A DNA stretch of 64,000 nucleotides from an uncultured virus (IMG/VR IMGVR_UViG_3300034157_000062) (taxonomy: Duplodnaviria > Heunggongvirae > Uroviricota > Caudoviricetes), in IMG/VR virus record IMGVR_UViG_3300034157_000062, one strand, 5' to 3'. The notes beneath the pieces are model-generated. The model saw only the letters and a program-made list of their open reading frames with translations. It was not told the origin of the DNA and made no database searches. The translations under genes and the position numbers were made by a program. Shown piece after piece: positions 11,946-64,000 of this stretch; within the stretch, counting starts at the first letter, position 1, and every line of letters starts with the position of its first letter.

Positions 11946-12006
11946 CTTCACTCCTGATATATGTTTCAAATTTTTTTTGTTATATATTAAAATAAATATT
12001 TCAATT

Positions 12007-12783: not shown

Positions 12784-12811
12784 TTTTTACACCTTCTTAA
12801 TGTCGTTAAAT

Positions 12812-17258: not shown

Positions 17259-17990
17259 TTGACAATGAATATAAAATCATTTTTTCAATCGTTCTACATA
17301 AAAAACTATTATACTCTTAGTATGTTGATTAGTACAATATTTATTACACTTGGATTATTTATTCCAAAGACAGTGAGTGATTTTCAAAATAATGAATTAT
17401 TTTTTAAATTAACAGAATATTTTTTTATTATTATTTTTAGTATTATATTTATTTTTAGCCTATTCATGTATATAAAAAGCTTTTTTATACATTTATTTGT
17501 TGTTCGAAATAGTAAAGATACTGCAAAATTTCAAAAAATCCTTTTTTTTGCAATTGTTTTTTTAAAACTATATCTTTATGCTAATATATTTAAACTCAAT
17601 AAAAACGATGGTCAAATTTATTCTGATGACTATTTGTATTCGTGTATTTATTTTGTTCATACATTATATATAGCGAGTCTTTTATTATTTATTTCTTTTT
17701 ATATTTATGATTTTACAATATTTTTAAAAAAAGAGTTGGATTCGTGTCATTGGATAGATAAATATCTGGCGTACAACCAGATAAGAAACAAGAAAAACAT
17801 TAAAATAGACGGTAAAATTGTCTCTATTCATTTTAATGGGTTTTCATTGAATGAGTTATCAAATACGCTTACATTCATGAATAATGATTTAAAAATATCT
17901 TCATTTAGAGCGTATATGGATGAAAATAAATATAAATTAAATGATTTAACATATGAAGAAGTATTAATAATAAAAATGATAGGAATTTGA
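17259..17990 (+). CDS. Family C 4-TM membrane protein; C-terminal MxxI tag
   Basis: Four hydrophobic segments; HWI..YL..xQ, FRxY; ends NDLTYEEVLIIKMIGI. Confidence 0.78.
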   Translation: MTMNIKSFFQSFYIKNYYTLSMLISTIFITLGLFIPKTVSDFQNNELFFKLTEYFFIIIFSIIFIFSLFMYIKSFFIHLFVVRNSKDTAKFQKILFFAIVFLKLYLYANIFKLNKNDGQIYSDDYLYSCIYFVHTLYIASLLLFISFYIYDFTIFLKKELDSCHWIDKYLAYNQIRNKKNIKIDGKIVSIHFNGFSLNELSNTLTFMNNDLKISSFRAYMDENKYKLNDLTYEEVLIIKMIGI

Positions 17991-18724
17991 CCATTATGAA
18001 AATGAAATCAATATTACCAGAATTCTACTTTAAGAACTACCATTCTTTTGTATTGTTCAATGCTGCCCTTTTTCTTATTATGGCTTTGCCTTTTCCTGAA
18101 CAAGACGACTGGTCACTCAATGGTATGCGATATTTCTTAGAATTCCCCATTATGTTCATTCTGGCCGCACTTATTATTTGGAACTTATGTTTGTATTCAA
18201 AAAGTTTTATTTCAAAGTCTTATTCTTCAATACAACATAATATGTCGGACTCTTTGACGGTTTATTCAGTGTATGGAGTTGTCCTCTTAAAATCAATGTT
18301 TCATGTCTTGTGCCTTTCTTCTTATGTTAATGAAACCAATGTGATCAAGTTTCCATCGCAAGACTGGATGTTAGGAACCATGTGTTTATTTTATTTTATG
18401 TACATTGTGGCAATAGGCCATTTTGTTTTTCTTTCAATTAAGGGGACTTATATTCGATATATGTCACCTGTGACGAATAACCACTGGATTATGGATTTCT
18501 TAAATCCTAAACAGTTACGCAAAGTTAAGAATGTTTCAGCTAACGGACAAATCGTATCTGTTTATTTTAAAGGATTTCTTCTTGATGAAACGGATAACAG
18601 TGTGATCATTAGAAAACATAAACTTAAATTGAATGCATTTCGAGACTACATAACCATGAATAATTTTAAAGTTGATGATTTAAGTGATGAAGAACTTACA
18701 GTTATCGAAATGTTAGGTATATAG
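17987..18724 (+). CDS. Family C 4-TM membrane protein; C-terminal MxxI tag (TAG stop)
   Basis: HWI, KQ, FRDY; ends DDLSDEELTVIEMLGI-TAG. Confidence 0.78.
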   Translation: MTIMKMKSILPEFYFKNYHSFVLFNAALFLIMALPFPEQDDWSLNGMRYFLEFPIMFILAALIIWNLCLYSKSFISKSYSSIQHNMSDSLTVYSVYGVVLLKSMFHVLCLSSYVNETNVIKFPSQDWMLGTMCLFYFMYIVAIGHFVFLSIKGTYIRYMSPVTNNHWIMDFLNPKQLRKVKNVSANGQIVSVYFKGFLLDETDNSVIIRKHKLKLNAFRDYITMNNFKVDDLSDEELTVIEMLGI

Positions 18725-18740
18725 CAAAGGAGTTTCATAG

Positions 18741-19454
18741 ATGAAAGAACTGTTCACAAAAAAACATTTCAAAGATAATGCTTTGTTTGTTTTATTCGCT
18801 TCTACTTTTATTTTTGGATGTACGTTTTTTTTGATGAATATAAGAAATGTTATTTTTGATAAAGATAGTGCTAATTTTGATCAACCTACCGCTTTTTTTT
18901 ACAGTTACTTATTATTTAATTCTTTAATAGGCATTGTATTTAATTTATTTGTGTTAGTTCGCAATATTTTATCGGGTAGTTCATCCATTATCTCAGGTGG
19001 TGAATTTTATATAAAATTAAGAAAATATTTCCTTATTATAATTTTTTTAAATGTAGTGACTATATTCTACACTTGTGCAAGTGAAAATTTAAATCAAATA
19101 GTCTATATTATTTTATTTGGGATAACTAGCTTGTCAAATATTATATTTTTAGTGCGAACCATTCCTTTTTGTGAATTAGATGGTCTTGCTAAACAAGCTC
19201 ATTCAGTTGACCATTGGGTGTATCCATATCTAAACGATAAGCAATTGAAACAGCTTAGGATCGTCAATGAAACCAATAATCAATTTATGATTGCATTACC
19301 TAATATTGTATTATCCGATGGTGGTAACTGGTTAAGGTATTATGAAAACGAATACAATCTTTCATCATTTAGAAGTTATATTGAAACCAAATCTTGTAAA
19401 TTAAATGATTTAAATAAAGACGATTTTATAATTATATCTATGTTAGGTATATAA
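18741..19454 (+). CDS. Family C 4-TM membrane protein; C-terminal MxxI tag
   Basis: HWV..YL.DKQ, FRSY; ends NDLNKDDFIIISMLGI. Confidence 0.78.
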   Translation: MKELFTKKHFKDNALFVLFASTFIFGCTFFLMNIRNVIFDKDSANFDQPTAFFYSYLLFNSLIGIVFNLFVLVRNILSGSSSIISGGEFYIKLRKYFLIIIFLNVVTIFYTCASENLNQIVYIILFGITSLSNIIFLVRTIPFCELDGLAKQAHSVDHWVYPYLNDKQLKQLRIVNETNNQFMIALPNIVLSDGGNWLRYYENEYNLSSFRSYIETKSCKLNDLNKDDFIIISMLGI

Positions 19455-19456
19455 AA

Positions 19457-20167
19457 ATGTTAAATAAAATTAGTATACCGAGTTTCTACCTGTATAATTA
19501 TCACTCTCTCAATATTGTAGCGTGTTTACTTGTGATTGCTTTCAGGTTTATTGTGGGTGATAACTATTTTTCATCAATGCCCTACATTGATAGTTTTATC
19601 CATTATTCATTAATAGTAATGATTGTTATCAATACAGTGATGCTCATTAAATCATTTATGATGAAAACTTACACAAGTATTAATGAGACACCAAAAGATA
19701 CTTATCTCATTATGGCTTTTATTATCCTTATGTCTTTTAAGTCATGTATAATGATGCTTACATTATTTAGTTGGATTATTAATTTTAAAAATGATTATAT
19801 GAATGGAACAATTGATGTTATAATAGGTTGTTTTTTTATCATGTATTTTATTTTATATCTATTCTTTTTATATTTTGGATTCCTAGGTATTAGAACTAGA
19901 ATTAAACACGTTAAGATTAATAATCACTGGGTCTTTCAGTATTTGAGTGACAAACAAATCAGAAGTGTTAAAACTTATCAGGAAGAAGGTAAAGTGATCG
20001 GCCTTTACTTTAAAGGCTTCTTTATGGATGAAGATAAGAATAGCTTAGTCATTAAAGATAAAAAAATAACACTCAGCGATTTTAAAATGTATATTAAAGA
20101 AAAAGATTGTAAAATTGATGACTTGACCCAAGAAGATATTGCAATCATGGAAATGTTAAGTATTTAA
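19457..20167 (+). CDS. Family C 4-TM membrane protein; C-terminal MxxI tag
   Basis: HWV..YLSDKQ; ends DDLTQEDIAIMEMLSI. Confidence 0.78.
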   Translation: MLNKISIPSFYLYNYHSLNIVACLLVIAFRFIVGDNYFSSMPYIDSFIHYSLIVMIVINTVMLIKSFMMKTYTSINETPKDTYLIMAFIILMSFKSCIMMLTLFSWIINFKNDYMNGTIDVIIGCFFIMYFILYLFFLYFGFLGIRTRIKHVKINNHWVFQYLSDKQIRSVKTYQEEGKVIGLYFKGFFMDEDKNSLVIKDKKITLSDFKMYIKEKDCKIDDLTQEDIAIMEMLSI

Positions 20168-20198
20168 ATGTGTCATAATAATTTATTGGAGATATTAA

Positions 20199-21437
20199 AT
20201 GAAGGATATTGTAGACAGGTTAGAAAAAAGAACAAAATATTTGTGGCGTGCTGCTTTCTTTGGATCTGCACTATTCTTTCGTATTACCTTTGAAGGTGAT
20301 TATAAAGAATATCTTACTTGGTCAGTTTTTTTTGTGTTTTTTGTTATTGACCATTTGATAGGCTATGCTATTAGATGGATGTATAAAATAGAACCATCCG
20401 CTATTATTGATATTGTAAAATCAATGGGAATTACAGGAATACATAAAGGTATTGATACTTATGGATACAGTGAAGATTACATTAGGTCATACTGGTTTTT
20501 CCCAGAAGAGTCGAAAGCGTACACTTATTATAAGCGTGATCGATATGGTTTTAACACTCCTGATGACTATAAATTTATGTATATTTCTTTATATGACAAG
20601 AAAAAAAGAAATAATGATAAAATTGAAGTCTATAAAATGTTGACCCGAAGCCGATACATAAAGAAGACAACAGACAATTTAAAAACAATGGAACTTAGTA
20701 TTAAATTAGAGCTATCATACATCAATGATCAATTTGTCTTAAAAAATCATTACAATAGGGATGATGTTGCGTCTTTGCATGTTGATGAAGCCTTTTCCTA
20801 TTTTCATAAATTTGTAGAAGATATTAAAGTATTATTTGACCCAGATGATTTTTACCATTTTATGAAAGATAGCTCTTTTGAACTTGAAATTTCAACTAAA
20901 ATAAAAAGAAATTTACTAGTCAGCTCAAAGACAGATGGCATTAAAAAATATCGTTTAAATGTCAAATGGGCTGATAATATAGGATCTCTGAAACTAGGTA
21001 AATTTAGATGGTGTTTTAAAGATGGTTCCGCAATAGAATTTCATGATTACAGTGAACTTATTTCCGATTACAAAAAGAAAAATAAACCGTTACCTGAATG
21101 GCTTGTCATCGAAAAATACTACGTTTCAATAATGTTTAATAGACTTATAAGCATATATAGTGATAAATTAGATGAATACGCCGTATACAGTGATTCAGAA
21201 GTTGTTGAGAAATGGAAGAAAATAGTGATTAAAGAAAAATTAAAAATGAAAAAACGAATAGAGGTTCTTAAAAATAAAGTAAAACAACGAACCTATAAAA
21301 AGGTTAAACCAGAAGATATTAAATTTTGGGAAAATCGATCATTAAAAAAGCAGTTAAATAGTACGAAAAGAATTATCAATCTCAAAAAAAAGATAAATAA
21401 AAGAACTTACAAAGTTAAAGTATCAATTAATAAATAG
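20199..21437 (+). CDS. Membrane-anchored hypothetical protein (paralog of 21440..22660)
   Basis: Two N-terminal TM segments; shared YSEDY, NDKIEVYK, LELSYIN, PDDF, LNVKW; Lys-rich tail. Confidence 0.75.
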   Translation: MKDIVDRLEKRTKYLWRAAFFGSALFFRITFEGDYKEYLTWSVFFVFFVIDHLIGYAIRWMYKIEPSAIIDIVKSMGITGIHKGIDTYGYSEDYIRSYWFFPEESKAYTYYKRDRYGFNTPDDYKFMYISLYDKKKRNNDKIEVYKMLTRSRYIKKTTDNLKTMELSIKLELSYINDQFVLKNHYNRDDVASLHVDEAFSYFHKFVEDIKVLFDPDDFYHFMKDSSFELEISTKIKRNLLVSSKTDGIKKYRLNVKWADNIGSLKLGKFRWCFKDGSAIEFHDYSELISDYKKKNKPLPEWLVIEKYYVSIMFNRLISIYSDKLDEYAVYSDSEVVEKWKKIVIKEKLKMKKRIEVLKNKVKQRTYKKVKPEDIKFWENRSLKKQLNSTKRIINLKKKINKRTYKVKVSINK

Positions 21438-21439
21438 TA

Positions 21440-22660
21440 GTGGAGTTTCGAATGATAGACATTATAGAAAAATTCAGTAAACTAGCTCGATATTCATGGC
21501 GAATAGTAGCGATACTATATCTAAATTTTAGTGATTTTAAATTGGAAGGGTGGGCTGGAATGCTTAATCTTTTCCTTTTTATTGTTGGTTGTGTTGTCAT
21601 TGATTTCTCAATTGGGTTCTTTATTCGATGGGTTTACAAGTTTAAACCAACATCATTAAAAAAGATACTTAAATCAATAAATATAGAGGGTATACAAAAT
21701 AAGATGAGTGAGTGTAGTTATAGTGAAGACTACTTACTTTCACGATGGTTCATACAGTTTTCTTCAGACGAATATAGAAGTTACATGAATGATAAAGATA
21801 GACATCCTTTTAAAAATTATAAATTTAACTATATCACACTATATAATAAGAATAATAACGATAAAATTGAAGTTTATAAAACACTTCCTAATTATAAAAC
21901 AACGTCAACGTCAAGTTTAAAAAATATGTCAATAGATGTCGTATTAGAATTGTCTTATATTAATGAGACTTTTGTTATTAAAAATGAATATCCATCTGAT
22001 CTACTAGGTTCTTTAATTACAGCAGATACCTTTTTTCAATTTGACAATTTTATAAACAATCTAAAAATTTTGTTTAATCCTGATGATTTTTCTAATTTAA
22101 TGAAAGAAAGCTCTTTTGAAATTGTAGTCAGCAACGACTTTCAAAGAAACTTAATAACGCCTAATACATACGAAGGCATTAGAAGTTATAGTTTAAATGT
22201 TAAATGGTCAACTAATATAACATTTATGAATATTTCGCAATATAAACCATGTTTTGCTTCAGGTGAAATCTTTCGTTTTGTTGACTACACACAGTATATT
22301 GCTTACTGCAAAAACAATAATATAAATATCAAACGAGAAATAAAAGAGCGTTATGTTTATTCAATGTTTGAAAAAATATTTGATCAATATGAAAGCAACA
22401 GAATTAAAAAATTAATTAATTATGAGAAATCATATGATGATGAAGATGATGAAACAGTAGTTGAATATGAAACAGAAGATAAAACACTCAATTATGAAAA
22501 TTCAGATGATATTGAATTTTTTAAAAAGACAGTTATTAAAAATAAAAATCTATTAAAAAGAAAGATTATTTTCAAAGACCATGTAAATAATAGTAAATAT
22601 ATTAATAAGTTTAAACTGATTGCATTATTCATGGCAAATAATCAAAATAAATTAAAATAA
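21440..22660 (+). CDS. Membrane-anchored hypothetical protein (paralog of 20199..21437)
   Basis: Same shared motifs; acidic patch near the C-terminus. Confidence 0.75.
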   Translation: MEFRMIDIIEKFSKLARYSWRIVAILYLNFSDFKLEGWAGMLNLFLFIVGCVVIDFSIGFFIRWVYKFKPTSLKKILKSINIEGIQNKMSECSYSEDYLLSRWFIQFSSDEYRSYMNDKDRHPFKNYKFNYITLYNKNNNDKIEVYKTLPNYKTTSTSSLKNMSIDVVLELSYINETFVIKNEYPSDLLGSLITADTFFQFDNFINNLKILFNPDDFSNLMKESSFEIVVSNDFQRNLITPNTYEGIRSYSLNVKWSTNITFMNISQYKPCFASGEIFRFVDYTQYIAYCKNNNINIKREIKERYVYSMFEKIFDQYESNRIKKLINYEKSYDDEDDETVVEYETEDKTLNYENSDDIEFFKKTVIKNKNLLKRKIIFKDHVNNSKYINKFKLIALFMANNQNKLK

Positions 22661-23685: not shown

Positions 23686-26211
23686 TTATTGTTGCTCGAC
23701 ATCATGACAATTAACACATAAGTCATCAGTGCAAAGATGTTTGAAGTAATTCCAACAACGATCACACTTCTTGAAATCATGCTTGAATAGCTCTGTATTA
23801 TCATTTTTAACCACATGCACATTACCCAGCAACAAAGATAGGACATTCTGTTCATCAAGGCTTAAAACGCTGTTTAAATGAAGTGTCATCTCATTGTTCT
23901 TTGACATCACTTTACTTGCTCGACCTTCTTCAAACAGTTTATTTGCCACATCTCTCAGTTCCAACACTGTGTCAAAACGTGTTTTATCCAATTCAACAAC
24001 AACATCATCAAGAAGCTGTTCCATAAATACAGATAATCCAGAATAGCTTTCAAGACTTCTATAATATTCTTCTGTGGAATATGGAAGATAGGTAGACAAC
24101 AATACCATTAAGTTATGCTGCAAGTGATTTAACACTGATTGTGTCAACCTTCTTCTTGGTGCATCAGGAGCTAAACAATATAATCTATCTTTGTTAGCTT
24201 CAAAATAAAGCACACTTAATTTATCACAGAAACCATACAATAAAGTTAAGGCTTCATTAAACTTGTATTCATCGCCTAGCTTTAATACAGTCTTTTTAAG
24301 ATCATTCATTTCATTCAGCACATACTTATCTAATACATCCATATCCTTTGTATTTAATGTCTTCTCTGGTGTATAGTCATACAAGTTCTGCAACATAAAT
24401 CTGTACGTGTTTCTAAACTTCTTATACATTTCAGTCGCAGCTTGTAAGGTGCTTTCAGAATAAGTCAATTCTTTATGATAGTCTTGGTTAAGACACCACA
24501 ATCTTAATACATCAGGACTGTGTTGTTTCAACAAGTCTTGTAAGGCTACATAGTTACCTAATGACTTAGAAAACTTCATCCCTTTTGAATCCACAACAAA
24601 GCCATGAGTAAACACTTGCTTGTAAGGTGCTTGATTATTTAAAGCCGTTGAAGTCAATAGAGATGATTGAAACCAGCCACGGTGTTGATCAGAACCTTCT
24701 AAATATAAATCAGATTGAGTGGTGCCGTAGTTTCTTTTCATTACGGTGGTGTGTGTCATTCCACTGTCAAACCAGACATCTAATGTTTGGGCTGAAAAAT
24801 CTTCGGTATACAAGGCAGCCAAACCTTTATTTTTCACAACATCTACCCATCCTCTATATTCAGCAAGAGCTTCTGGTGTTTTGTTTCTTGGTAGTGGAAC
24901 TCCCCATAGTCTATTTCTAGATACACACCAGCTATTACGAGTAGCCAGCATAGAGGTCAGTCTATTCTTGCCATTGCTTGGGAAGAACGTAACATCTTCG
25001 ACTTCTTCAAGAGCTTTTTCTTTTACATTAGACAGATCCATAAACCATTCTTTGGAAGCTTTTGAAAATAATGGAGACTTATGACGCCAGCAGTGTGGAT
25101 ACTCATGTTCAAGTTTAGTTAAGTTGAAAACAAGATTGTCTTCTTGCAATTTAGCCAAGACAGCCGCCGCAGAATCTTTTAAATTCATGCTTTGAAGTTC
25201 TGGACACTCTTCGGCGTCGTATTTACCATAATTATCTACATAGCTTTTAACATCCAGATTATGAGATTCACCTAAATAGAAGTCATCAAGACCAAAAGAT
25301 GGAGCCACATGCACAAGTCCAGTGCCTGAATTTTCTACGAAATCAGCTTGTAATAAAGGCACCATCTTTTTGCTGTATGGACTTTGAACAGAAAGGTTAT
25401 CCAAGTTAACGTCTTCAACATAATCGAGTTGGTTATCCACTTCATCATTTTTCAATGACACATAGAACTTGTTTCTTTCCTTACTGTAATATTTGGCATA
25501 AGTAAATCTTTTATTATACGCAACAGCTTGGTTTGCGGGTAACGTATAGGGTGTTGTTGTCCAGACCAGTAGATAAGTATCATCATTGAGTTTAAATTCA
25601 ACGGTTACGCTGTCAGATGTTTTCATTTTGTATTCAACCTCAGCTTCTGCTAATGAAGACTGGCAGTCTTTACACCAGTGAACAGGTCTGAATTTTTGAT
25701 GGAGATAATTTTTATCTAACAAACTAAGCACAGCTTCCATTTCTTCGGCTTCACGAAAGAATTCATTTGTTTTATAGGACTTATCAAAATCGGCCAACAT
25801 CCCAAACTCTTTTAACTGGGATAATTGATTGGCGACTTGTTCATTAGAGTATTGATAGCAATGATTCAAGAACTCTTGTTTATTACCTTTTCCACTGTGT
25901 AGTTTTTCAACCGCTAATTCGACAGGTAATCCATGACAGTCAAAACCATTGTTGAAAGGAGCGTAATAGCCATTGAGACGTTTAAATTTTAAGACAGTAT
26001 CTTTCAATACCTTGTTGGTGAAGTGTCCAAGATGAAGATCACCGTTCGCGTAAGGCGGGCCATCATGCAGAAGGAATAAAGGTTTTTGATTTTGTTGTTC
26101 TAAAAAGTCTTTCATTTCCTGACTGTTCCAACAATCAAGATAACTCGATTTATCAAGAAACTTCTCGTTAAGATTGAAAGTGACCTTTTTCATGTTTAGA
26201 TTGTATTTCAT
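23686..26211 (-). CDS. ileS: Isoleucine--tRNA ligase, type 1 (compact, 841 aa)
   Basis: HDGPPYANGDLHLGH, WTTTPYTLPAN, GTGLVHVAP, WCVSRNRLWG, EGSDQHRGWFQSS, KFSKSLGN, C-terminal CDRC...CVNC zinc site. Confidence 0.96.
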   Translation of the reverse strand: MKYNLNMKKVTFNLNEKFLDKSSYLDCWNSQEMKDFLEQQNQKPLFLLHDGPPYANGDLHLGHFTNKVLKDTVLKFKRLNGYYAPFNNGFDCHGLPVELAVEKLHSGKGNKQEFLNHCYQYSNEQVANQLSQLKEFGMLADFDKSYKTNEFFREAEEMEAVLSLLDKNYLHQKFRPVHWCKDCQSSLAEAEVEYKMKTSDSVTVEFKLNDDTYLLVWTTTPYTLPANQAVAYNKRFTYAKYYSKERNKFYVSLKNDEVDNQLDYVEDVNLDNLSVQSPYSKKMVPLLQADFVENSGTGLVHVAPSFGLDDFYLGESHNLDVKSYVDNYGKYDAEECPELQSMNLKDSAAAVLAKLQEDNLVFNLTKLEHEYPHCWRHKSPLFSKASKEWFMDLSNVKEKALEEVEDVTFFPSNGKNRLTSMLATRNSWCVSRNRLWGVPLPRNKTPEALAEYRGWVDVVKNKGLAALYTEDFSAQTLDVWFDSGMTHTTVMKRNYGTTQSDLYLEGSDQHRGWFQSSLLTSTALNNQAPYKQVFTHGFVVDSKGMKFSKSLGNYVALQDLLKQHSPDVLRLWCLNQDYHKELTYSESTLQAATEMYKKFRNTYRFMLQNLYDYTPEKTLNTKDMDVLDKYVLNEMNDLKKTVLKLGDEYKFNEALTLLYGFCDKLSVLYFEANKDRLYCLAPDAPRRRLTQSVLNHLQHNLMVLLSTYLPYSTEEYYRSLESYSGLSVFMEQLLDDVVVELDKTRFDTVLELRDVANKLFEEGRASKVMSKNNEMTLHLNSVLSLDEQNVLSLLLGNVHVVKNDNTELFKHDFKKCDRCWNYFKHLCTDDLCVNCHDVEQQ

Positions 26212-35153: not shown

Positions 35154-35262
35154 TATCCATCGTTCCTATAGTAGTCTTTCTTGTCTAATATAGTAACTTT
35201 AGTAATGCCTAAGTCAATAATGAAAAAAGCCTACGAATAGGCTTTTATTTCATTTTATTATT

Positions 35263-35556
35263 TCAATCGACTTCTTTCTTAATGACATCACCTGTTGCAG
35301 CGTTAATTTTTACATTGAAGTCAGCCTTGTTGGCATCGACTAGATCAACATCATAAACATAAATACCATTATCAAGATCGAGTTCAGTTGATTCTACTGT
35401 TGTACCGGGATATTGTTTAATGGCAATATCATTTAATACTTTGACATCTTTGATGGTACCACTTTCTCTTAGTTTGATAGCTTCGGAATCACTGACATCT
35501 GCAAATGCTACACCTGTTGTTAAAATTGCGGCTAGGGCTAATATGCTTTTTTTCAT
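35263..35556 (-). CDS. Secreted PepSY domain protein
   Basis: Signal peptide ending AFA; EAIKLRESGTI, YPG..ETELD..YVYDVDL..INAATGDVI. Confidence 0.85.
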   Translation of the reverse strand: MKKSILALAAILTTGVAFADVSDSEAIKLRESGTIKDVKVLNDIAIKQYPGTTVESTELDLDNGIYVYDVDLVDANKADFNVKINAATGDVIKKEVD

Positions 35557-35759
35557 AATCTATCCTCCGGTTGTTTGTTAGTTATAATACATTAAAAAAT
35601 GAAAAAATCAAGTTTTTGAATTGAAATTTAAGTTATGGTTAAGGTTTGATATTACGTTTTTCGATTAATCTATGAATAAAATCATTTGAAATTAATTTGG
35701 CTTTTCTTTTGTGTTCTGTATGCTATCCTGAAAATAAAGCCAACTATATTTAAGAAAAT

Positions 35760-35969
35760 ATGCACACACTCTATATAGAAAAAAATCTTCAACAACAAAA
35801 CATTTGTGAAAAGTTCCTGACTTCCGTCAATCAAAATCATCCTGAATTAAAACTTGTTTATTCTTGTGAACAATCTACTGACCTTTCAGTTATCTTTGAA
35901 ATCAACTTCTCTCTGGAACATCGAGCATTAGCAGAAGAGTTGGTGAAAAAACTATACAGCATAAATTGA
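35760..35969 (+). CDS. Small hypothetical protein
   Basis: 69-aa ORF filling an intergenic gap; weak SD. Confidence 0.4.
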   Translation: MHTLYIEKNLQQQNICEKFLTSVNQNHPELKLVYSCEQSTDLSVIFEINFSLEHRALAEELVKKLYSIN

Positions 35970-36019
35970 CTTTTATTCTTTATAAATTACACTAATAAAA
36001 TATATTTCAGGAGAATTTT

Positions 36020-54902: not shown

Positions 54903-55364
54903 TTATACACACTGAAATTTCTTGGTGATTTGTTTTACTTGTTCTTTGGTGCAAGGCCCAATACCCAAAGCGGTAATGATTGGCGATCCATCAAAGTGTG
55001 GTGGTAAAACGTGACCTTGATCGACAATAATTGAACATGGCAATCCAGCAGCAATAGCTTGGTTATATGCTTTGATTAAGTGATCTTCGTTTTTGGCTTT
55101 TAACGTAACCTTAGATCCGCCTGATTGACGATTTCTATAATGTTTGACGTTATCTGGGTGTGATTCTTGTGCGTTTGTTAATGCATCTGTATAAGCATGA
55201 CCAGCTTGAGCTGCGAGCTTACCCGTTGGCATGTTTAAATCGCCGCGAATGATTGAATAGATATAGTAATGTGAGTCTTTGTCCGAAGGAACAAATTGAG
55301 TGTATTGGCTAAGAATAGCCTCTTTGGTGATGAAGTCGAATTCAGTATTATCAATCTACAACAT
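54903..55364 (-). CDS. pth2: Peptidyl-tRNA hydrolase type 2, with an in-frame TAG at codon 3 (predicted readthrough)
   Basis: YIYSIIRGDLNMPTGKLAAQAGHA, KVTLKA, IVDQG, TALGIGP. The conserved first strand lies upstream of the ORF-track ATG. Start reads AAGGAG-N8-ATG TTG TAG ATT GAT AAT (TAG at 55358-55356). Confidence 0.88.
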
Positions 55365-55397: not shown

Positions 55398-55426
55398 ATT
55401 CTACGCTGTATTTTTATCAAAGTCAA
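55398..55426 (-). promoter_or_regulatory. sigma70 promoter of the pth2 operon
   Basis: TTGACT-17-TAGAAT, ~35 nt upstream of the ATG at 55364. Confidence 0.8.
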
Positions 55427-55581
55427 CACTTTTTTTGACCTATTATTAAAATATTGAAATAAAATATTTTTACAAAAAAAATGATAACAAATGAAGAATA
55501 CCTTTAAAAATAGGTAATAAGGTATTGAAAAGGTAATTACAATCTGCTATCATTTCATTCATCTGTTTTTAACTGGGACAG

Positions 55582-56226
55582 ATGGATCTAGGAGATAAAA
55601 AATTGATCAGTATGCTCGAAGTTTTTATTATGCTTGCTATTGCAGTCGGATTTATGATTGGAGCAGGAGCTATGGTACAAAATAAACATGAATCTCAGCC
55701 AGAAGCTTCTTATAAGTGTGTGGATAGTTCATGCTATAAAAAAGAACTCGACACTAGTAAAGAGTTTGATGAAAAATCTATTGTAGCTATTAACAAAAAA
55801 CCAGTAGAAATAGTTAAACAAAAACCTGATCCTGTTCCTGTTGTTATGAAAGAAGAAATAATTGAAAATCATTATCATTTTAAAGAATTGAATGCTGGAT
55901 TGATGGCGTTTGCTGGCTTAGGTGGTGCTGCCATGATGTTCTTCATTCTTTATAAAATTATTGGATTTGGTAGAACATCACTCGTTTTATCCAAAGCCAA
56001 AAAGAAAAGCAATCAACTTTTGGCTGAATTTGATAACGTGGTTGATGATGTTAAACGTTCTATTGAGTATAATAAGAAAATCGTTGAACAAGTGGCTTTT
56101 AATAACTTATTACTTCAAATTAATAAAAACAATCCATCAGTTAGCCCTCTTATTGTCAGTAACCAGATGATGAAAGATAAACTCATTTTTATTGAAAGGA
56201 AAATATTGAATGATTTCAAGAACTAA
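55582..56226 (+). CDS. Family E two-TM protein with pilin-like N-terminus
   Basis: ISMLEVFIMLAI; ENHYHFKELNAG followed by a TM segment and a helical C-terminal domain. Confidence 0.72.
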   Translation: MDLGDKKLISMLEVFIMLAIAVGFMIGAGAMVQNKHESQPEASYKCVDSSCYKKELDTSKEFDEKSIVAINKKPVEIVKQKPDPVPVVMKEEIIENHYHFKELNAGLMAFAGLGGAAMMFFILYKIIGFGRTSLVLSKAKKKSNQLLAEFDNVVDDVKRSIEYNKKIVEQVAFNNLLLQINKNNPSVSPLIVSNQMMKDKLIFIERKILNDFKN

Positions 56227-56924: not shown

Positions 56925-58019
56925 ATGAATATGAGTGAATTTGATAAATATATTGAAGAAAATTACAAGGTAGGCGATATTGGCCCACAAGGTGATAGTG
57001 GGCTTAAAACGAGTCATGACACTCACGATTTTGATTATGAATTTGAATCCTCAGATAGTCCATCAGATGATGCAGTTTCATTTCATTATGAAGATGATGT
57101 AACTTCTGATGATTTTGAATATCTTACAGACTATGAAATGCATAATAATCGTAAACAATATGACAAACAGTATGAACGTCTATTCGCTACTTACAAAAAG
57201 ACAGCTAAGAAGTCAAATATTAAATCAAAATCAACATTTAGTGACGACCAAATTGCTGGATTTGATTATGTAAAAAGTTATTATATAGCCAATATGGAAG
57301 CTAAACAGCAAGCAAAAGCAGAAAAAGTTAAACTCGCTACATTTATGGGGTTTGCTTTCTTTGCTGGATTTCTTATTGTCGTATATTCAACTTTTTATAA
57401 TATGGGTATTGATTCAGTAAATAATTCATCTGTTTATGTCATTCAAACTGAGGCAATAAAAGCTAGTGAAATACAATTGAGTGAAATGCAATTAAAAAAG
57501 GATGACTTTTCAGAATTGAGAAGACGCATTCAAGAAAAAAAGCAGGTAGATATAGCTAGTGAAATCTCAAATGTAAAAAAACAAACACAGCAAGAAATTA
57601 AACCAGTAATAATTCAAGCAGAACAACCTGTTATTAAACCTGTTCCATCCGTGGTGAATAACTATAATTTTGATAAATTGAACAGTGGTTTAGCGACTTT
57701 GGGTTATTCTTTATTGGCTTGTTTTGCGGCTTTTGTTTCTTTCAAAGGTTTGTCATCTTTTAGTAAATCATTCAAACTGAAAAGAGAAATCAAAAAAAGC
57801 AAACAGCTTATTGATAGTTTTAAGCTAGCTATCAGTAATCAAGATGACCAACTGTCTATCAGTCAGCATATTAATGATCAAATTGTTATTAATAATATTT
57901 TGATACAGAGATTACAAAACAATAATAATGTGGTTGAATTGATGGCTGTGAATGAGAAAATGAAAGATACTAGTCAATTTATCAATAACAATTTAATTAG
58001 CAATTTTAAGGGGGTTTAA
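56925..58019 (+). CDS. Family E two-TM protein with acidic N-terminal extension
   Basis: NNYNFDKLNSG followed by a TM segment; KKSKQL...Q..INN. Confidence 0.72.
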   Translation: MNMSEFDKYIEENYKVGDIGPQGDSGLKTSHDTHDFDYEFESSDSPSDDAVSFHYEDDVTSDDFEYLTDYEMHNNRKQYDKQYERLFATYKKTAKKSNIKSKSTFSDDQIAGFDYVKSYYIANMEAKQQAKAEKVKLATFMGFAFFAGFLIVVYSTFYNMGIDSVNNSSVYVIQTEAIKASEIQLSEMQLKKDDFSELRRRIQEKKQVDIASEISNVKKQTQQEIKPVIIQAEQPVIKPVPSVVNNYNFDKLNSGLATLGYSLLACFAAFVSFKGLSSFSKSFKLKREIKKSKQLIDSFKLAISNQDDQLSISQHINDQIVINNILIQRLQNNNNVVELMAVNEKMKDTSQFINNNLISNFKGV

Positions 58020-58020
58020 T

Positions 58021-58614
58021 ATGATTATTTTTATTGTAATAGTCATGTCATTGATGATGGTTCTAGCCGTTGCTCTAGCACCCCATGCAGTAGACGAAAA
58101 TCGTAAACAAGTTGATCAACCTAATTCACCAATTGAAATGCATATTGAAAGACAAACAGTACAAAATGTAACCACATTACCTAAAAAAGTGATTGCTGAG
58201 CCGGTGGTGAAGGCTGAACCTGTTAAAGTCGTTGTTAAAGAAGTGACACCACAAATTAACAATTATAATTTTGAGAGTTTAAGCAAGGTTTTAATGTATG
58301 TTTTAGCAATGGTTGGTTCATTCTTTTCTTTGAAATGGTTAATTAAACTTTTTAAATATTATAAAATGAATCGTAAGTTTAAAATAAATGCAAAGAAAAC
58401 GAATAAATTAGTAGATAGTTTGAGAAAAACGATTGATAATCAAAAAGAATTCTTAGAAATAGCTGATATGATTGAACATCAATTAAATATCAATGATATT
58501 TTATTGAGAAGTGAAGAATCAAAAACATATGGACTCGACCTAGAATTAGCAGATGGATATCTTGATAAAGAATATAAGTTCATTAATAGTAAGTTAATTA
58601 ATATTTTGAATTAA
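58021..58614 (+). CDS. Family E two-TM protein
   Basis: NNYNFESLSK followed by a TM segment; KKTNKL...QLNIN. Confidence 0.72.
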   Translation: MIIFIVIVMSLMMVLAVALAPHAVDENRKQVDQPNSPIEMHIERQTVQNVTTLPKKVIAEPVVKAEPVKVVVKEVTPQINNYNFESLSKVLMYVLAMVGSFFSLKWLIKLFKYYKMNRKFKINAKKTNKLVDSLRKTIDNQKEFLEIADMIEHQLNINDILLRSEESKTYGLDLELADGYLDKEYKFINSKLINILN

Positions 58615-58634
58615 AAAAAAGCCCTTATCAGGGC

Positions 58635-59252
58635 TTATTTTTTTCCTTTTGCTACATAGATATATTTACATAAGTTAGGATGTGTTTCACAGAATTCTAA
58701 TGACCTAAGCTTACCTTTTCTATCAATCAAGCTCCATTTGTAGTTAAGTAATGATGGCTCACCTTCATGAAAGTCAATAAAAAACCTATACTCAGAAACG
58801 GTTGTTAGCGTATTAGAATATTGATCATTATTAGTACGTTGAGGAATAAACACACTGACGTGCTTACCCAGTGGATCTTGACTTATTCTGGTTATCTCTT
58901 GGCAATCTATAAATGATGTATTCTTATCTTCTTCTTTTAACGTTAATTGAGTTTTTTGATTACAGAGTTGACTCTCCGTGACCAAATAGTTCCATGCATA
59001 CTCTGTTAAGGGAATATCCACTTTTTGTTCTGGGTGGCTGTAGCCATAGGCCGTCTTCAATTCTAATGATTGTAGATAGCCTTTTAATATGGTTTGATTA
59101 ATACTTTGTTTGTAGTTAATAACATCTCGTGTAATTAATATAGAAGCTAATATTAATATGAGTGCAAGCAGTATGGCTAACTTTACAATTGTGGCTGCAC
59201 TTATATTTTCTAATAAACTTTTTTTCTTAATCTTGTAATGCTCGTAAATCAT
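58635..59252 (-). CDS. Membrane-anchored hypothetical protein
   Basis: N-terminal TM segment; C-terminal FCETHPNLC. Confidence 0.68.
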   Translation of the reverse strand: MIYEHYKIKKKSLLENISAATIVKLAILLALILILASILITRDVINYKQSINQTILKGYLQSLELKTAYGYSHPEQKVDIPLTEYAWNYLVTESQLCNQKTQLTLKEEDKNTSFIDCQEITRISQDPLGKHVSVFIPQRTNNDQYSNTLTTVSEYRFFIDFHEGEPSLLNYKWSLIDRKGKLRSLEFCETHPNLCKYIYVAKGKK

Positions 59253-59433
59253 AAAAAAAATCTTTGTTTGATAGTATTATTATACTATAAAAAAACCAAA
59301 ACAAAATATTAAAATACTATTTAAATAATGATATTTAAGACTTTTCATTGAACTTTTAAAAATACAAAATATAAGTACTTGTTTAAATTATAGCAAGCTT
59401 ACAAAGCAATAATCCCTCTACTGAGGGATTATC

Positions 59434-60192
59434 TTAAACCATGTACATTTTCAACACATCAAACATACTTATATCTTTTATAACTTCTTTTATATCAAAA
59501 ATTTCTTTTAATTTTTTATATTGCGGTGCATCTAGATACATATACATGATCGTTTCTTCCATTGTCTCACACCACTCTGGAATTTCTCTTCTTTTCATAT
59601 TCTTATAAAAAAATGAAATCGTAGAGAACATGATGTTCGTATGTTTCTCATAATATACATTAAATTTATACATGGAATTACGACCAATACCATATAAATC
59701 ACCTTCATCATCATTGAAAGGATTCATAACCGCTATATCTATACTTCTGATTTTTGTTAAATCGAAATCTTTATAACTGACCATTGCATATAATTCTAAA
59801 TTATATTTATTACCTTCATCAAAAAACTCTGCAAAAAATTCTGAATTATAACCTTCTATCAAATCTTTTGCTTTAACTTTAAGATAAACAGTCAATGCGT
59901 CGATTTCTGCAGATTGTTTCGCTTTTACGTCATCTAAGAAATCTTTTGTGAAAACAGTTTTCAAACTTGAAATGTTCTCGTAAAACAAATGACTTCTTTT
60001 TTCCATATACTCATACGACCATTCATATTGCTCATCACTTAAATAGTCGTCATCATCATAACAACAACAAAATGAATCACAACATGAATCGTCACCCCAT
60101 ATTTCAAGGGCGATCTTATTTGTAAATTTTTTATTAAATTCTTTGCATTTGGAATTACTGAGGTGTCTTACTGCGTTGCTATATGTGACCAT
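59434..60192 (-). CDS. Hypothetical protein with Cys/Asp cluster and C-terminal MxxV tag
   Basis: SCCDSFCCCYDDDDY; ends FDVLKMYMV; AGGAGA SD. Confidence 0.75.
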   Translation of the reverse strand: MVTYSNAVRHLSNSKCKEFNKKFTNKIALEIWGDDSCCDSFCCCYDDDDYLSDEQYEWSYEYMEKRSHLFYENISSLKTVFTKDFLDDVKAKQSAEIDALTVYLKVKAKDLIEGYNSEFFAEFFDEGNKYNLELYAMVSYKDFDLTKIRSIDIAVMNPFNDDEGDLYGIGRNSMYKFNVYYEKHTNIMFSTISFFYKNMKRREIPEWCETMEETIMYMYLDAPQYKKLKEIFDIKEVIKDISMFDVLKMYMV

Positions 60193-60340
60193 GTGAAATC
60201 TCCTAATTATTAAGCAATAAACGACTTTTTTATGTCATAAGATAACTTCCATTGAAATGGATTTATAGTTATGCTATATGTTTAGTTATGCATTCGTCAT
60301 TTATTAGCGTGATATAATTAGTTACATGAGATTTCTCCAT
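60193..60340 (-). promoter_or_regulatory. Long hairpin 5' leader with bulged SD-led AUG-UAA start-stop, sequestering the downstream SD
   Basis: GAAAUCUC-[AUGUAA]-CUAAUUAU (60335-60314) pairs with AUAAUUAG-GAGAUUUC (60210-60195); further inner stems. Confidence 0.72.
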
Positions 60341-60360
60341 TAATGTGTGAATATTCTTCT

Positions 60361-60389
60361 ATCTTAAAGCAATTTAAACAAAAAATCAA
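60361..60389 (-). promoter_or_regulatory. sigma70 promoter feeding the start-stop leader
   Basis: TTGATT-17-TAAGAT. Confidence 0.6.
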
Positions 60390-60390
60390 G

Positions 60391-61422
60391 TTAAAAATTC
60401 AACATTGCTACTAAATCAAAGAAGGCTTGCGGATTGTCTTCTAATTCATCTAATTCCAACTCAATTTCGTATTTTTCAAAATACTTTTTAAACTGATAAT
60501 GGAAGATAATCTTTTTGAAGAATTCTTTTGAGTAAGATTTTTTCAAACGAAGATAACCATGTGGTGTCATTGATATAGCATAGTAAGCAGGTTTCTTTAA
60601 AAATTCAAAGTTTCTGATTTCAATCGTGAAATGTTTATAACCCGATTGTTTTATGTAACGCTCGTTAAATTTTTTAAGAACAATGGTACCATCTTTCTCT
60701 TTTACCTTCTTTTCATAAACGTCAGACTGTTGTAAACGAACTTCAAGTTTTAAATTAGGTATCAACTCTCCATTTGAACCAATTTTGAATTCTTCTTTCT
60801 GAGCAATTTCAACGATAAAATTGATAGAATTTTTAATAAAATAGTTTAATGTTCGACTGTTTTGTTTTCTGGGTGGCGATAATTCAACCTCACCATATTG
60901 AGAAAAGACATCAATGATTTCTTTAATACAGTGATCCGCAATCGGTTTTATTTGTTCATCAAATATTTTTCTATGTTCATTAGCTTTATTGTGTTTGTAT
61001 TTGGTCATATAATCGAGTGTTATATTATAATTATATTCAGGAATTAAATCAGAACGGTAAGTAGACTTGAATACGTCCTTAGCTAACAAAATATTTGGAC
61101 TTGATGCTAGTTGTTCTTTTAATCCATAAATTCTAGACGTTGGAAATTTACTGTGGTTTTTATTAACAATGAAAGAATGACTTATATATTCTTTCTTTTC
61201 GTCTTCAGCGGTAGGATTAAATGTAACCATATTTTTGTTGGCTGATGTCACAAATAAGAAATCTTCTGTTATTTGAACAGAGGCTTTGGGAATAAGAAAG
61301 TCACGATTTTTACTTGTTTCATACAAGCTTTTAAATATGCTTAATGCATTAACTCCAACAGGTGAATTCTTCCAATCACTGGGTGTTAGCTTGCTTAATT
61401 TTTCAAATTCAATAAAATACAT
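60391..61422 (-). CDS. Hypothetical protein with C-terminal MxxF tag
   Basis: Ends FFDLVAMLNF. Confidence 0.72.
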   Translation of the reverse strand: MYFIEFEKLSKLTPSDWKNSPVGVNALSIFKSLYETSKNRDFLIPKASVQITEDFLFVTSANKNMVTFNPTAEDEKKEYISHSFIVNKNHSKFPTSRIYGLKEQLASSPNILLAKDVFKSTYRSDLIPEYNYNITLDYMTKYKHNKANEHRKIFDEQIKPIADHCIKEIIDVFSQYGEVELSPPRKQNSRTLNYFIKNSINFIVEIAQKEEFKIGSNGELIPNLKLEVRLQQSDVYEKKVKEKDGTIVLKKFNERYIKQSGYKHFTIEIRNFEFLKKPAYYAISMTPHGYLRLKKSYSKEFFKKIIFHYQFKKYFEKYEIELELDELEDNPQAFFDLVAMLNF

Positions 61423-61425
61423 AAG

Positions 61426-62187
61426 TTAAACTCTCCACATGTCGTATACCATTTTGTATCTGTCGAAGTTGTTCTGAAAATCTTCCAGACTTACCTCTAT
61501 ACCTATTTTTTTAGTCATTTTTTTGTACAATCTTGTATAAATACAGTTTTCTACAAATTTATCCCTATTTTCTTCTGTTGACGCCACTTCAATTTGTTTT
61601 AATGGGTTTAATAATTCTAAACCTTCCACATCACTTGTTAAAAAAAACATTCTTGCATTGTAAACATACAGTTCACTGTACATAAACTCTATTAATCTGT
61701 CTGTCTCAACATGATAATAGAAACGCGATTCAGTTAAGTTTGTATAGGTTATTCTTTTACCATCAATATTAAAAGGAACATACATGTTCACTCTGGTTAA
61801 GTAAGCTGTATCTTTTTTATCTTTTAACCGAACCTTTGATGTATTTAGACTTCTCACATCTTCAAGATTAAAACAACCTAATTCTACCAATTTGTTAACA
61901 TAGACTTCACGTAGCTCTCTACATTTTTTAGCATAGTCTTTAATTTGTAAAAAATTATTGGGTGCCCATTTTTCAGCACTCTCTCTTTTGAAATCTTCAT
62001 TATCCAGTTCTAATAGACAACTTCCATCTGGTAAATATTTTTGTGTATTAACATAGGCAATTCTATCGCCGTTGTTGTTATTAAGAACCAAAATTAAATC
62101 ACTACTGTTTGCTTTTTTAACATACATTGAATGATTAGGCGTAGGATCTTTTTTCAGTATAAATTTACTCATTATTAGACCTTCCAC
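61426..62187 (-). CDS. Family D paralog; C-terminal DMxxV tag
   Basis: LPxGxCLLEL, YTNLT, KKIGI; ends YDMWRV. Confidence 0.78.
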   Translation of the reverse strand: MEGLIMSKFILKKDPTPNHSMYVKKANSSDLILVLNNNNGDRIAYVNTQKYLPDGSCLLELDNEDFKRESAEKWAPNNFLQIKDYAKKCRELREVYVNKLVELGCFNLEDVRSLNTSKVRLKDKKDTAYLTRVNMYVPFNIDGKRITYTNLTESRFYYHVETDRLIEFMYSELYVYNARMFFLTSDVEGLELLNPLKQIEVASTEENRDKFVENCIYTRLYKKMTKKIGIEVSLEDFQNNFDRYKMVYDMWRV

Positions 62188-62897
62188 ATGTCATAAATAG
62201 CTTTATAACTATCGAAGTTCTTTTGAAAATCATTCATATCAACGTCTATTCCTATTTTTTTAGTGATTCTTTTATGTAGTCTTTCGTTAATGCATGTATG
62301 TAACATCTCATCTTGCGTTTCTTTTGGATAAGCGACTTCTACACTTTTTAATAGCTTACAGAACTCTAATCCTTCAAAGTCACTACTGAGAAAAGTCATC
62401 TTGGCGTTGTAAACAAATAATTCAACACATACAAACTCTATAATCAGATCTAACTGAATGTGGTAAAACATTTTATTCAGTGTAAGGTTTGTATATATCT
62501 TTTTAACGCCATTGAAGTCAAATGGCACTCTCATTACTGTTTTTTCTAAATATTCTTCTTCTGTAATACTGTCAGCGTGATACAGTTTGGATATTTCACC
62601 CATATCAATACAACCCATTTCAATGAGTTTATTCAAATAAACTTTTCTAATTTTTTTATTCTTTTCATATTTACCTTGAACCAATGAGACATATTTTTTT
62701 CCTAATTGTCTAGTTTGCTTTGCTTGGGGAATATCCATTTCTAATTCAAGTAGACAATTTCCATTAGGCAACCATTTTTCAGAAATCGTTCTAGCAATTT
62801 GCACAGATTGTTTATCATCAGTCGCATGGTTAAGGTATAAGCCACCTACGCTGCTACTGTATGGAAATTTATCCTCTCTAAAACTAAATCTATTCAT
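62175..62897 (-). CDS. Family D paralog; C-terminal DMxxV tag
   Basis: Same motifs; ends YDMWKV. Confidence 0.78.
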   Translation of the reverse strand: MNRFSFREDKFPYSSSVGGLYLNHATDDKQSVQIARTISEKWLPNGNCLLELEMDIPQAKQTRQLGKKYVSLVQGKYEKNKKIRKVYLNKLIEMGCIDMGEISKLYHADSITEEEYLEKTVMRVPFDFNGVKKIYTNLTLNKMFYHIQLDLIIEFVCVELFVYNAKMTFLSSDFEGLEFCKLLKSVEVAYPKETQDEMLHTCINERLHKRITKKIGIDVDMNDFQKNFDSYKAIYDMWKV

Positions 62898-63024
62898 TAA
62901 GCAAACTCCTTAAATGTCCATTATTATACATTAATGTAGAAGGCAAGTCAAACTAATAGGTTTTCTTGTTTGACTTTTTTTATATTTGTAGTAAATTATT
63001 TTCATTAATAATGGTATATATTAC

Positions 63025-63618
63025 ATGAAAAAAATACAAGACTATTTGAAACAATCTTATGAGAATTCCGTTAATAAAGGTTGGTATGAAAGACCCACTA
63101 CATCTATTGAACGATTTGCTTTAATGTTATCAGAAATTTCAGAAGCGACTGAGGAAGTTCGCTCATCGAAAGAAGATTTCTATCTCGTAGATGGCAAACC
63201 AGAAGGCCAGTCAGTTGAGCTAGTGGATGTCTTAATTCGTATATTTGACTACTCAGGTTATGCGAATGTCAACTTCTCTAAGTTCTTAGAGACTCAATTT
63301 TTTGTATCCTTCAATCCGATTAATACGATTAATGATTTAATGGTTGAAGTTGCTCAGTTGAATAACATACGTTGTTATGAAGAATTGCAAGATTTACACA
63401 GTGACTTAGAATTTCATATATCAGTGGCTATCTCCATTTGTGACGCTGCAAAATCACACATGAAAAAAACTGAGAAAGAGTTCTTGTTTTTAGCTGAAAC
63501 AGTGGTTAAAATAGCTTACTTCTTCCGTAAGAAAGGTTGGAATATGACAGAAATTCTTGATATTAAACATGAATATAATGTGAGCCGCCCACATAAACAT
63601 GGTGGAAAAGTTTGTTAG
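63025..63618 (+). CDS. MazG-like nucleotide pyrophosphohydrolase
   Basis: SEISEATEE, VELVDVLIRIFD, KHEYNVSRPHKHGGK. Confidence 0.8.
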   Translation: MKKIQDYLKQSYENSVNKGWYERPTTSIERFALMLSEISEATEEVRSSKEDFYLVDGKPEGQSVELVDVLIRIFDYSGYANVNFSKFLETQFFVSFNPINTINDLMVEVAQLNNIRCYEELQDLHSDLEFHISVAISICDAAKSHMKKTEKEFLFLAETVVKIAYFFRKKGWNMTEILDIKHEYNVSRPHKHGGKVC

Positions 63619-63631
63619 GAGTAAATAAAAA

Positions 63632-64000
63632 ATGAATAAAATGATAATAGGTGCTGTGTTGTGTAGTTCTTTACTATTAGGAGCTTGTTCTAGTCATCAA
63701 GCCACTACACCACCTGCTTTTCTGCTTGAAGATAATGTGACGATGAGTGTTGTGACAGATTATCAAGAGAAAGAATTGACCCAACGATTAAGTAATAAGT
63801 GGGAAATCGCTAAAAACTCAACGAGTTTGGTATTAACGGTGAGTGATTTAGATGTTTTTGAAAGTGATAATGAAACCATAAAACCATCCATAATAAAAGA
63901 CTTGGATGTTATTGCTGACATGGTTGTGATTTCTCCACATAGCCAGTTGAAAATTGTATCGCATACTGATAATCAACTTGAATTCTATGCTGGATTAGTT
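63632..64000 (+). CDS. OmpA-family lipoprotein (3' truncated by window edge)
   Basis: AGGAG SD; lipobox LLGAC; VFESDNETIKP...LDVIA...LKIVSHTDN. Confidence 0.7.
   Translation, partial: MNKMIIGAVLCSSLLLGACSSHQATTPPAFLLEDNVTMSVVTDYQEKELTQRLSNKWEIAKNSTSLVLTVSDLDVFESDNETIKPSIIKDLDVIADMVVISPHSQLKIVSHTDNQLEFYAGLV

Follow-up and report, generated by a model that had tools for sequence, protein, structure and literature searches.

In Escherichia coli, a hairpin joins the upstream open reading frame (uORF) toiL to the ribosome-binding site (RBS) that belongs to the main gene, topAI, and blocks its translation, and it has been described that ribosomes held on this uORF, including those at its start codon, disrupt the hairpin (PMC12121999). 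The vmlR leader of Bacillus subtilis carries a uORF of three codons, uORF(MIN), which lies in a bulge of the stem-loop SL-1 with its Shine-Dalgarno (SD) sequence single-stranded ahead of the stem; this leader is described as being remodelled by ribosomes arrested at initiation and as responding to drugs that arrest initiating ribosomes (PMC9226507). Start-stops, in which the start codon is the only sense codon, have been reported by Ribo-RET at 14 sites in E. coli, inside genes and out of frame, where they bind ribosomes in vitro and give toeprints trapped by retapamulin and Api137, and mutating the yecJ start-stop at its start codon raises reporter expression by about 16% (10.1101/520783). 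They have also been proposed in Campylobacter jejuni (PMC11955535). Here, a stretch of 64,000 nucleotides (nt) recorded as an uncultured virus (IMG/VR IMGVR_UViG_3300034157_000062), referred to below as the window, is described for a start-stop that lies in the 5' leader of gene 59434..60192 and is bulged from the long helix that hides the SD of that gene. The helix that hides the SD is genuine, exceeds chance expectation by a wide margin and is conserved, and its combination with a bulged, conserved start-stop is well supported. It is proposed that this leader acts in cis to attenuate translation of gene 59434..60192, being of the same type as toiL-topAI and the vmlR uORF but with its uORF reduced to a start-stop, a tentative reading that is given slightly less than an even chance of being correct.

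The leader of gene 59434..60192

All coordinates are positions in the window, and the start-stop SD, the main-gene SD and the start-stop AUG are termed SD1, SD2 and AUG1, respectively. Every feature of the leader lies on the minus strand, in the 198-nt spacer between gene 60391..61422 and gene 59434..60192. The initial annotation had placed in this spacer a TTGATT-17-TAAGAT promoter followed by GGAG-AAAUCUC-AUG-UAA, and all of these elements are present. The putative sigma-70-type promoter, recognised from its sequence, consists of TTGATT (60389..60384), a 17-nt spacer and TAAGAT (60366..60361); it agrees with the consensus at 8 of 12 positions, which is below the promoter-scan threshold of 9, and is hence unlisted in that scan. 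Downstream of it, SD1 (GGAG, 60335..60338) stands 7 nt (AAAUCUC) ahead of AUG1 (60327..60325), which is directly followed by UAA (60324..60322). This spacing equals that of the main gene itself and is also the modal GGAG-to-start spacing of the window, occurring at 8 of the 20 gene starts (among 68) that have a GGAG 3-12 nt upstream. The leader therefore holds a start-stop ORF with an RBS of its own, whose start codon is its only sense codon and which is intergenic, within a 5' leader, and not inside a gene out of frame; because no sense codon follows AUG1, no nascent peptide is possible.

The two 8-mers that flank AUGUAA pair perfectly with the SD2 region, as had been claimed. Helix H1 is formed by GAAAUCUC (60328..60335), which doubles as the spacer of the start-stop RBS, and GAGAUUUC (60202..60195), and helix H2 by CUAAUUAU (60314..60321) and AUAAUUAG (60210..60203), with 8/8 complementary positions in each case. 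The two 3' arms together (60195..60210) contain SD2, AGGAGA at 60204..60199, which straddles the H2/H1 junction. Beyond an internal loop, helix H3 pairs a 5' arm composed of GC, a bulged U and AAUAAAUGAC (60296..60308) with a 3' arm composed of GUCGUUUAUU plus GC (60214..60225), where a repeat finder gives AAUAAAUGAC and GUCGUUUAUU as 90% complementary. The remainder of the leader (60226..60295) is a variable apical part, which takes a different fold in each relative.

When 60360..60185 is folded as RNA, the minimum free energy (MFE) structure is one rod of -33.5 kcal/mol (z -3.29), a stability equalled by 1 of 200 dinucleotide shuffles. AUGUAA forms in it the precise 6-nt bulge that the initial annotation had described, between H1 and H2 and directly facing the centre of the main SD, and the same bulge is found in the MFE folds of the two homologous leaders, L186 and L202, that are introduced below. 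The claims of further interior pairing and of a single rod of about 145 nt stand in part: the pairing of AAUAAAUGAC with GUCGUUUAUU was found, and the rod and the apical helices AUGCAUAA/UUAUGaCAU, AUAACU/AGUUAU and UCCAUU/AAUGGA are present in the MFE structure of the window, but these apical helices are only partly in the centroid structure and are not kept in the relatives. Because the apical parts of the relatives fold differently, the single 145-nt rod is not conserved, and conservation extends only to the three basal helices.

Accessibility was predicted by partition-function folding of about 198 nt of each of the three leaders. In these predictions, SD2 is unpaired with a probability of 0.002-0.006, AUG1 and UAA with a probability of at least 0.99, and SD1 with a probability of 0.50-0.58. 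When positions -15 to +15 around AUG1 are forced to be single-stranded, as by the footprint of a ribosome, the predicted probability that SD2 is unpaired rises to 0.35-0.64.

The extent of the pairing was set against that at the other gene starts of the window by scoring two 8-mers (gap 0-10 nt) in the upstream 220 nt against positions -18..-3 at 68 gene starts. Gene 59434..60192 alone scores 16/16 Watson-Crick pairs, the other 67 starts scoring 9-13. There are 33 upstream regions with a length of 120 nt or more, and by z the leader comes third among them (z -3.09, 100 shuffles). Neither of the two that rank above it has a long-range stem (here with a span of 149 nt) together with 12/12 paired bases in the SD region; one is an intrinsic terminator situated in an 866-nt gap, the other a local hairpin that covers a start codon of doubtful standing. 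Both in the window and in L202 the leader occurs once, and its start-stop is the sole intergenic one among the five SD+ATG+stop motifs of the window. No Rfam family reaches its gathering score anywhere in the window, and the 9 Rfam matches with E<=10 in 58000..64000 are all far under the gathering score, none of them lying over the leader in sense.

Conservation in homologous leaders

A DNA pattern taken from the 3' end of the leader was found at 120 or more metagenome loci, and among the matches listed there is one true homologue, L186, in which the leader is 79% identical over 216 nt (blastn) and both flanking genes are matched by tblastn. A 24-nt stretch of the 5' arm led to one contig of a viral collection, L201, and the family alignment recovered the same contig as L202. 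The main protein is 79% identical to that of the window in L202 and 69% identical in L186 (first 98 codons). Protein-pattern scans gave no related loci in viral contigs (single protein), in genome contigs or, among the matches listed, in metagenome contigs, and the phage and plasmid collections held no DNA match to the window. The comparison below covers three leaders, those of the window, L186 and L201/L202.

The sequence GGAG-N7-AUG-UAA is unchanged in the three lineages, with SD1, its 7-nt spacer and AUGUAA identical in 3/3 leaders, and GGAGAAAUCUCAUGUAACUAAUUA is identical throughout the three-way alignment; the apical leader is 50-57% identical. By segment, identity to L201 and to L186, respectively, amounts to 23/29 and 25/29 for the promoter, 25/25 and 24/25 from GGAG through the 5' arm, 27/28 and 25/28 for the loop plus the inner 5' arm, 31/54 and 27/54 for the apical part (a 54-nt central stretch, with indels), 14/18 and 15/18 for the inner 3' arm, and 24/24 and 20/25 for the 3' arm with SD2 up to the AUG. 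The putative promoter boxes read TTGATA/TAAGAT in L201/L202 and TTGATT/TAAAAT in L186, with a variable spacer between them. For scale, where the flanking genes encode identical residues, the third codon position is the same in 74% and 57% of cases (two genes, against L202) and in 62% (against L186), and fourfold sites are identical at 19/38 and 26/63 (against L202) and at 6/13 (against L186). Taken from the aligned sequences, these figures point to functional constraint on the basal leader, though such constraint is not unique to that leader. In addition, the AUG-to-AAG change of L186 at 60340 extends the context of SD1 to AAGGAG.

The base of each relative, folded independently, takes the same form as in the window. 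In L186 it consists of 8 base pairs (bp), the AUGUAA bulge, another 8 bp, an internal loop and a GC-plus-10-bp helix (z -3.93, matched by 0/200 shuffles), and L202 shows the same basal elements (z -2.57, 1/200 shuffles). When the 31 basal pairs are placed on the alignment, 96.8% of the cells are standard pairs, a share that falls to 37-43% once the 3' partner has been displaced by 1-3 columns. All 8 H1 pairs are invariant across the three sequences, two basal pairs are altered on one side and still paired, and three cells are broken. The last H2 pair (pair 48/153) has undergone the one two-sided compensatory change, from U-A in the window and L202 to A-U in L186. Within H3, the 5' strand is invariant, and the 3' partner carries one mismatch in each relative as well as a change from U-G to U-A.

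The start-stop AUG is separated from the main AUG by 135 nt in the window, 135 nt in L186 and 132 nt in L202, and it was noted that this distance is a multiple of three in 3/3 leaders (60190..60327 on the minus strand of the window, 301..438 on the minus strand of L186 and 2863..2997 on the plus strand of L202), despite several apical indels. It was also observed that in L186 the frame from an AUG within the 5' arm of H3 is open into the gene, from which the gene caller made an N-terminally extended protein of 291 amino acids (aa), P0051. The N-terminally extended homologues P0015, P0005 and P0051 run into the 3' part of the leader, a mere hint of conservation of the 3' arm, which has been superseded by the DNA of L186. 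On the opposite strand, the region of the 5' arm holds an antisense promoter candidate, TGATATAAT, whose box is altered in L186.

Proposed opening of the helix by a ribosome

Opening of the helix by a ribosome, together with the sensing of termination, would be a plausible use of this leader, and it has precedents. In the proposed course of events, a 30S subunit or 70S ribosome initiating on the start-stop would draw the 5' strand (about -15 to +15) into the mRNA channel, its entry would unwind H1 and H2, and SD2 would be left single-stranded behind an upper hairpin that persists, a state that would resemble the induced state of the erm, cat and toiL attenuators. Output of the 252-aa protein would then follow the occupancy of the start-stop, which is the product of initiation frequency and the dwell until release and recycling. 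Because there is no elongation step, this dwell would depend only on initiation, on the action of release factors on fMet-tRNA at UAA, on recycling, or on drugs and stresses that trap the ribosome. Transcription reaches the 5' arm about 130 nt ahead of the 3' arm, and therefore the loading of a ribosome during transcription could determine whether the helix forms at all. The stronger statement, that this is the first bacterial 5'-leader start-stop to serve as an elongation-free sensor, in which the dwell on a one-codon ORF is set against closure of a 16-bp helix and timed against transcription of a 130-nt spacer, is somewhat unlikely. On that reading, gene 59434..60192 would read out the capacity for initiation, termination and recycling, or else whether agents are present by which ribosomes become trapped at a start or stop codon. 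The description of the element as a second termination sensor, used in the initial annotation, is not supported, as no first sensor was found for comparison.

Several observations weigh against a ribosome-operated start-stop. The SD+ATG+stop motif is unenriched, with 5 occurrences in the window (both strands) compared with 3.8 +/- 2.1 in Markov simulations, and the spacer of the start-stop lies within H1, so that the mini RBS is itself partly occluded. UAAC is the rarest context after UAA in the genes of the window (6/58), a small difference, and as a hint of slow termination it is at most weak. Covariation across homologous leaders, which the initial annotation had suggested as a check, yielded the single compensatory pair described above, and its measures are matched by 155/500 shuffles and are not significant; it is statistically unsupported because there are only three sequences. 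The contrast within L186 between the H2/H3 internal loop, changed at 4/8 positions with one inserted base, and the bulge, changed at 0/6, speaks for the start-stop, but it gives a one-sided Fisher p of about 0.07, with too few positions for it to carry much weight. Near-invariance extends over the whole 5' strand, the unpaired loop CAC and the H3 5' arm included, with identities from GGAG to GCAUA of 52/53 against L201 and 49/53 against L186, so that AUGUAA does not stand out by being invariant. A start-stop leaves the strand asymmetry of H3 (60296..60313, minus strand) unexplained, and this asymmetry may point to a second binding partner. Finally, a high degree of conservation between the window and L202 is seen in other intergenic regions as well (122/127 in one, long identical blocks in another), and therefore conservation alone does not single out the leader.

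Alternative explanations

The sRNAs (small RNAs) DsrA, RprA and ArcZ bind the rpoS leader and provide a precedent for opening in trans. Here, the conserved 5' strand might likewise be the target of an sRNA or protein, or the duplex might be cut by RNase III, with the start-stop being incidental or a decoy. Such an opener is rather unlikely. In its favour, there is hardly any variation in the 5' strand between GGAG and GCAUA and the 3' partner of H3 tolerates mismatches, an asymmetry that would be expected from a 5' strand with another partner, and the SD plus start-stop motif is not enriched. Against this, neither the 64-kb window nor the 6.7-kb L202, which cover a small part of a genome of about 1.9 Mb, yielded a complement that exceeds chance expectation (best matches of 12-15 nt, with E of at least 0.01), and a trans-acting opener leaves unexplained both the full SD at modal spacing ahead of the bulged AUG and the strengthening of SD1 by the change in L186. 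The rod might instead be constitutive and never switch, keeping translation low or protecting or processing a polycistronic mRNA, which would agree with a predicted opening of SD2 that stays at or below 0.014 over 20-42 C and with the lack of a terminator between the upstream gene and the leader. This is improbable, since a permanently closed SD would mean a near-silent gene, yet the gene is under purifying selection, and since a passive helix needs neither an exact bulge nor conservation of the SD1 sequence.

Other readings have still less in their favour. RNA thermometers include the prfA and fourU types, and the helix that holds SD2 is AU-rich and forms part of an extended hairpin with internal loops, so that melting with heat could be imagined to free the SD. 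It is, however, very improbable here, as the predicted probability that SD2 is unpaired in the three leaders goes from 0.000-0.001 at 20 C to no more than 0.003-0.014 at 42 C, and as sixteen perfect pairs plus H3 are far more stable than known thermometers. A leader peptide of 23 codons (MEKSHVTNYITLINDECITKHIA, AUG at 60340), the translation of which across the 5' arm would open the rod, is encoded in the window and in L202 and spans the whole 5' half of the rod; it is without an SD, and its AUG is AAG in L186, and with the start codon lost in that relative this ORF was rejected as a scarcely credible candidate. The window has 30% G+C (range 28-35%), and AT-rich sequence folds easily, which might suggest a chance palindrome, or else a repeat or mobile element. 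These were likewise rejected, and their probability is regarded as minimal, given a score of 16/16 where none of 67 other genes exceeds 13, conservation in three lineages, and a single copy in both the window and L202.

The putative target gene and its surroundings

The gene that would be controlled by the start-stop leader, 59434..60192 on the minus strand, encodes a protein of 252 aa with a conserved Cys/Asp cluster near its N-terminus. Six clusters of relatives with 62-96% identity, comprising 66 member sequences, were found among 5.8 billion clusters, the CC and DD columns being invariant among them, and the gene is under purifying selection. Neither this protein nor its operon neighbours could be assigned to a Pfam, PHROGs, NCBIfam or PADLOC family, a protein atlas gave no usable match for it, and its AlphaFold model is poor, with a mean predicted local distance difference test (pLDDT) score of 42. 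If the proposed attenuation is true, this clade-restricted Cys/Asp-cluster protein is flagged as one that the cell keeps tightly shut.

The upstream gene, 60391..61422 on the minus strand, encodes a protein of 343 aa with no assigned family, the L202 homologue of which is 80% identical. A terminator scan found none between this gene and the leader, and therefore read-through transcripts would also carry the leader. Downstream of gene 59434..60192, a terminator-like hairpin, AAUCCCUC-AGUA-GAGGGAUU followed by AUUGCUUUGU (59401..59430, minus strand), is conserved in L202 and unlisted by the terminator scan. Within the spacer 59253..59433 (minus strand), a block of about 60 nt is near-identical to L202 and lies just upstream of gene 58635..59252, for which it is probably the promoter or leader.

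Elsewhere in the window, most ORFs have SDs of the AGGAG type. The Pfam families present are ClpA-like, class I tRNA synthetase, SufE, YqeY, CoaE and MFS-acyltransferase, which are bacterial housekeeping genes, many ORFs are without a family, and the ClpA-like protein is 39-49% identical to those of diverse Proteobacteria. The 252-aa protein is recorded on a contig of 1,917,244 bases, and the DNA is accordingly attributed to a divergent, uncultured bacterium, with about 1.9 Mb of genome, and not to a phage. The contig L201/L202 (181 kb, from the viral collection) carries the same bacterial-style operon, the protein family occurs on contigs of 1.8-1.9 Mb, and the viral label of L201/L202 is doubtful. 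The window also encodes a PTH2-type peptidyl-tRNA hydrolase (54903..55232, minus strand), an RNA ligase-metallophosphatase fusion (102..2321, plus strand) and a class I tRNA synthetase (23686..26211, minus strand), which are genes of translation and RNA repair that share the window with a putative translation-sensing leader. A divergent promoter region (62898..63024), between the operon 62175..62897 (minus strand) and a gene for a MazG-like pyrophosphatase (63025..63618, plus strand; PHROGs match), is identical to L202 at 122/127 positions and holds a 9-bp inverted repeat, AAGTCAAAC...GTTTGACTT, which is operator-like.

The two other upstream regions that ranked highly by z were also inspected. 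The 866-nt gap without a long ORF (35154..36019) holds the strong intrinsic terminator AAAAGCCUAUUCGUAGGCUUUUUU, and at 55412..55587 (plus strand) a 13-bp hairpin lies over the annotated AUG of ORF 55582..56226, which is without an SD and may be a miscalled start or another structured start site. Tandem arrays of ORFs that are similar in size and without a Pfam family occur at 7754..13600 (minus strand), 17259..22660 (plus strand) and 61426..62897 (minus strand); one array has about seven ORFs of about 260-300 aa, and the operon's neighbours of 240 aa and 253 aa look paralogous. This arrangement fits a lineage-specific expansion of a gene family.

Comparison with known systems

In classical attenuation of the erm, cat and cmlA genes, a ribosome stalled in the leader frees a base-paired SD, which requires a nascent peptide plus a drug. 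The start-stop described here differs from the erm and cat leaders in that it makes no peptide, and stalling that depends on a nascent peptide or on particular codons is not found in it. It is closer to toiL-topAI, where the region of the uORF is likewise base-paired with the main RBS, a pairing that is represented here by H1 and H2 (16/16) and is kept in the relatives. As described, toiL is unlike the present element in being a multi-codon ORF with sequence-specific stall sites and in acting also via Rho termination (PMC12121999), whereas the leader of gene 59434..60192 is without a sense codon after its AUG, its helix is a long-range rod, and it is not known to be linked to Rho. With vmlR it shares a tiny uORF placed in the bulge of a stem-loop, but the vmlR uORF is reported to control an anti-antiterminator, and thereby transcription attenuation, a separate hairpin sequesters the SD, and the target is an ABCF resistance factor (PMC9226507).

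The same AUGUAA hexamer is found in the 5' leader of Arabidopsis NIP5;1, where regulatory ribosome stalling that depends on boron has been described and involves scanning ribosomes and mRNA decay (PMC11915504). In contrast to the leader described here, NIP5;1 has neither an SD nor a helix to be opened. The start-stops of E. coli and C. jejuni differ in another way, as none of them is described, in the parts of these reports that were consulted, as paired with a downstream SD (10.1101/520783; PMC11955535). A literature search, which was mostly outside subscription journals, likewise brought up no account of a start-stop in a bacterial leader that pairs with an SD downstream of it.

The purpose of bacterial start-stops inside genes is unsettled, the single one tested in E. 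coli, that of yecJ, lowering expression of its host gene by about 16%, and the structure of the present leader offers a clear job for such an element, which is that of holding open an RBS-hiding helix. If attenuation by the start-stop is true, it illustrates the extent to which a sensory uORF may be reduced, and the leader would be a portable test object for what a ribosome on an AUG-stop senses without elongation or a nascent peptide, with the supply of release factors, ribosome recycling factor (RRF) or initiation factors, and inhibitors of initiation or termination, as the candidates. Compared with the systems above, the leader of gene 59434..60192 joins features that are known, in that its uORF is cut down to a start-stop and is bulged in the same helix that hides the main SD.

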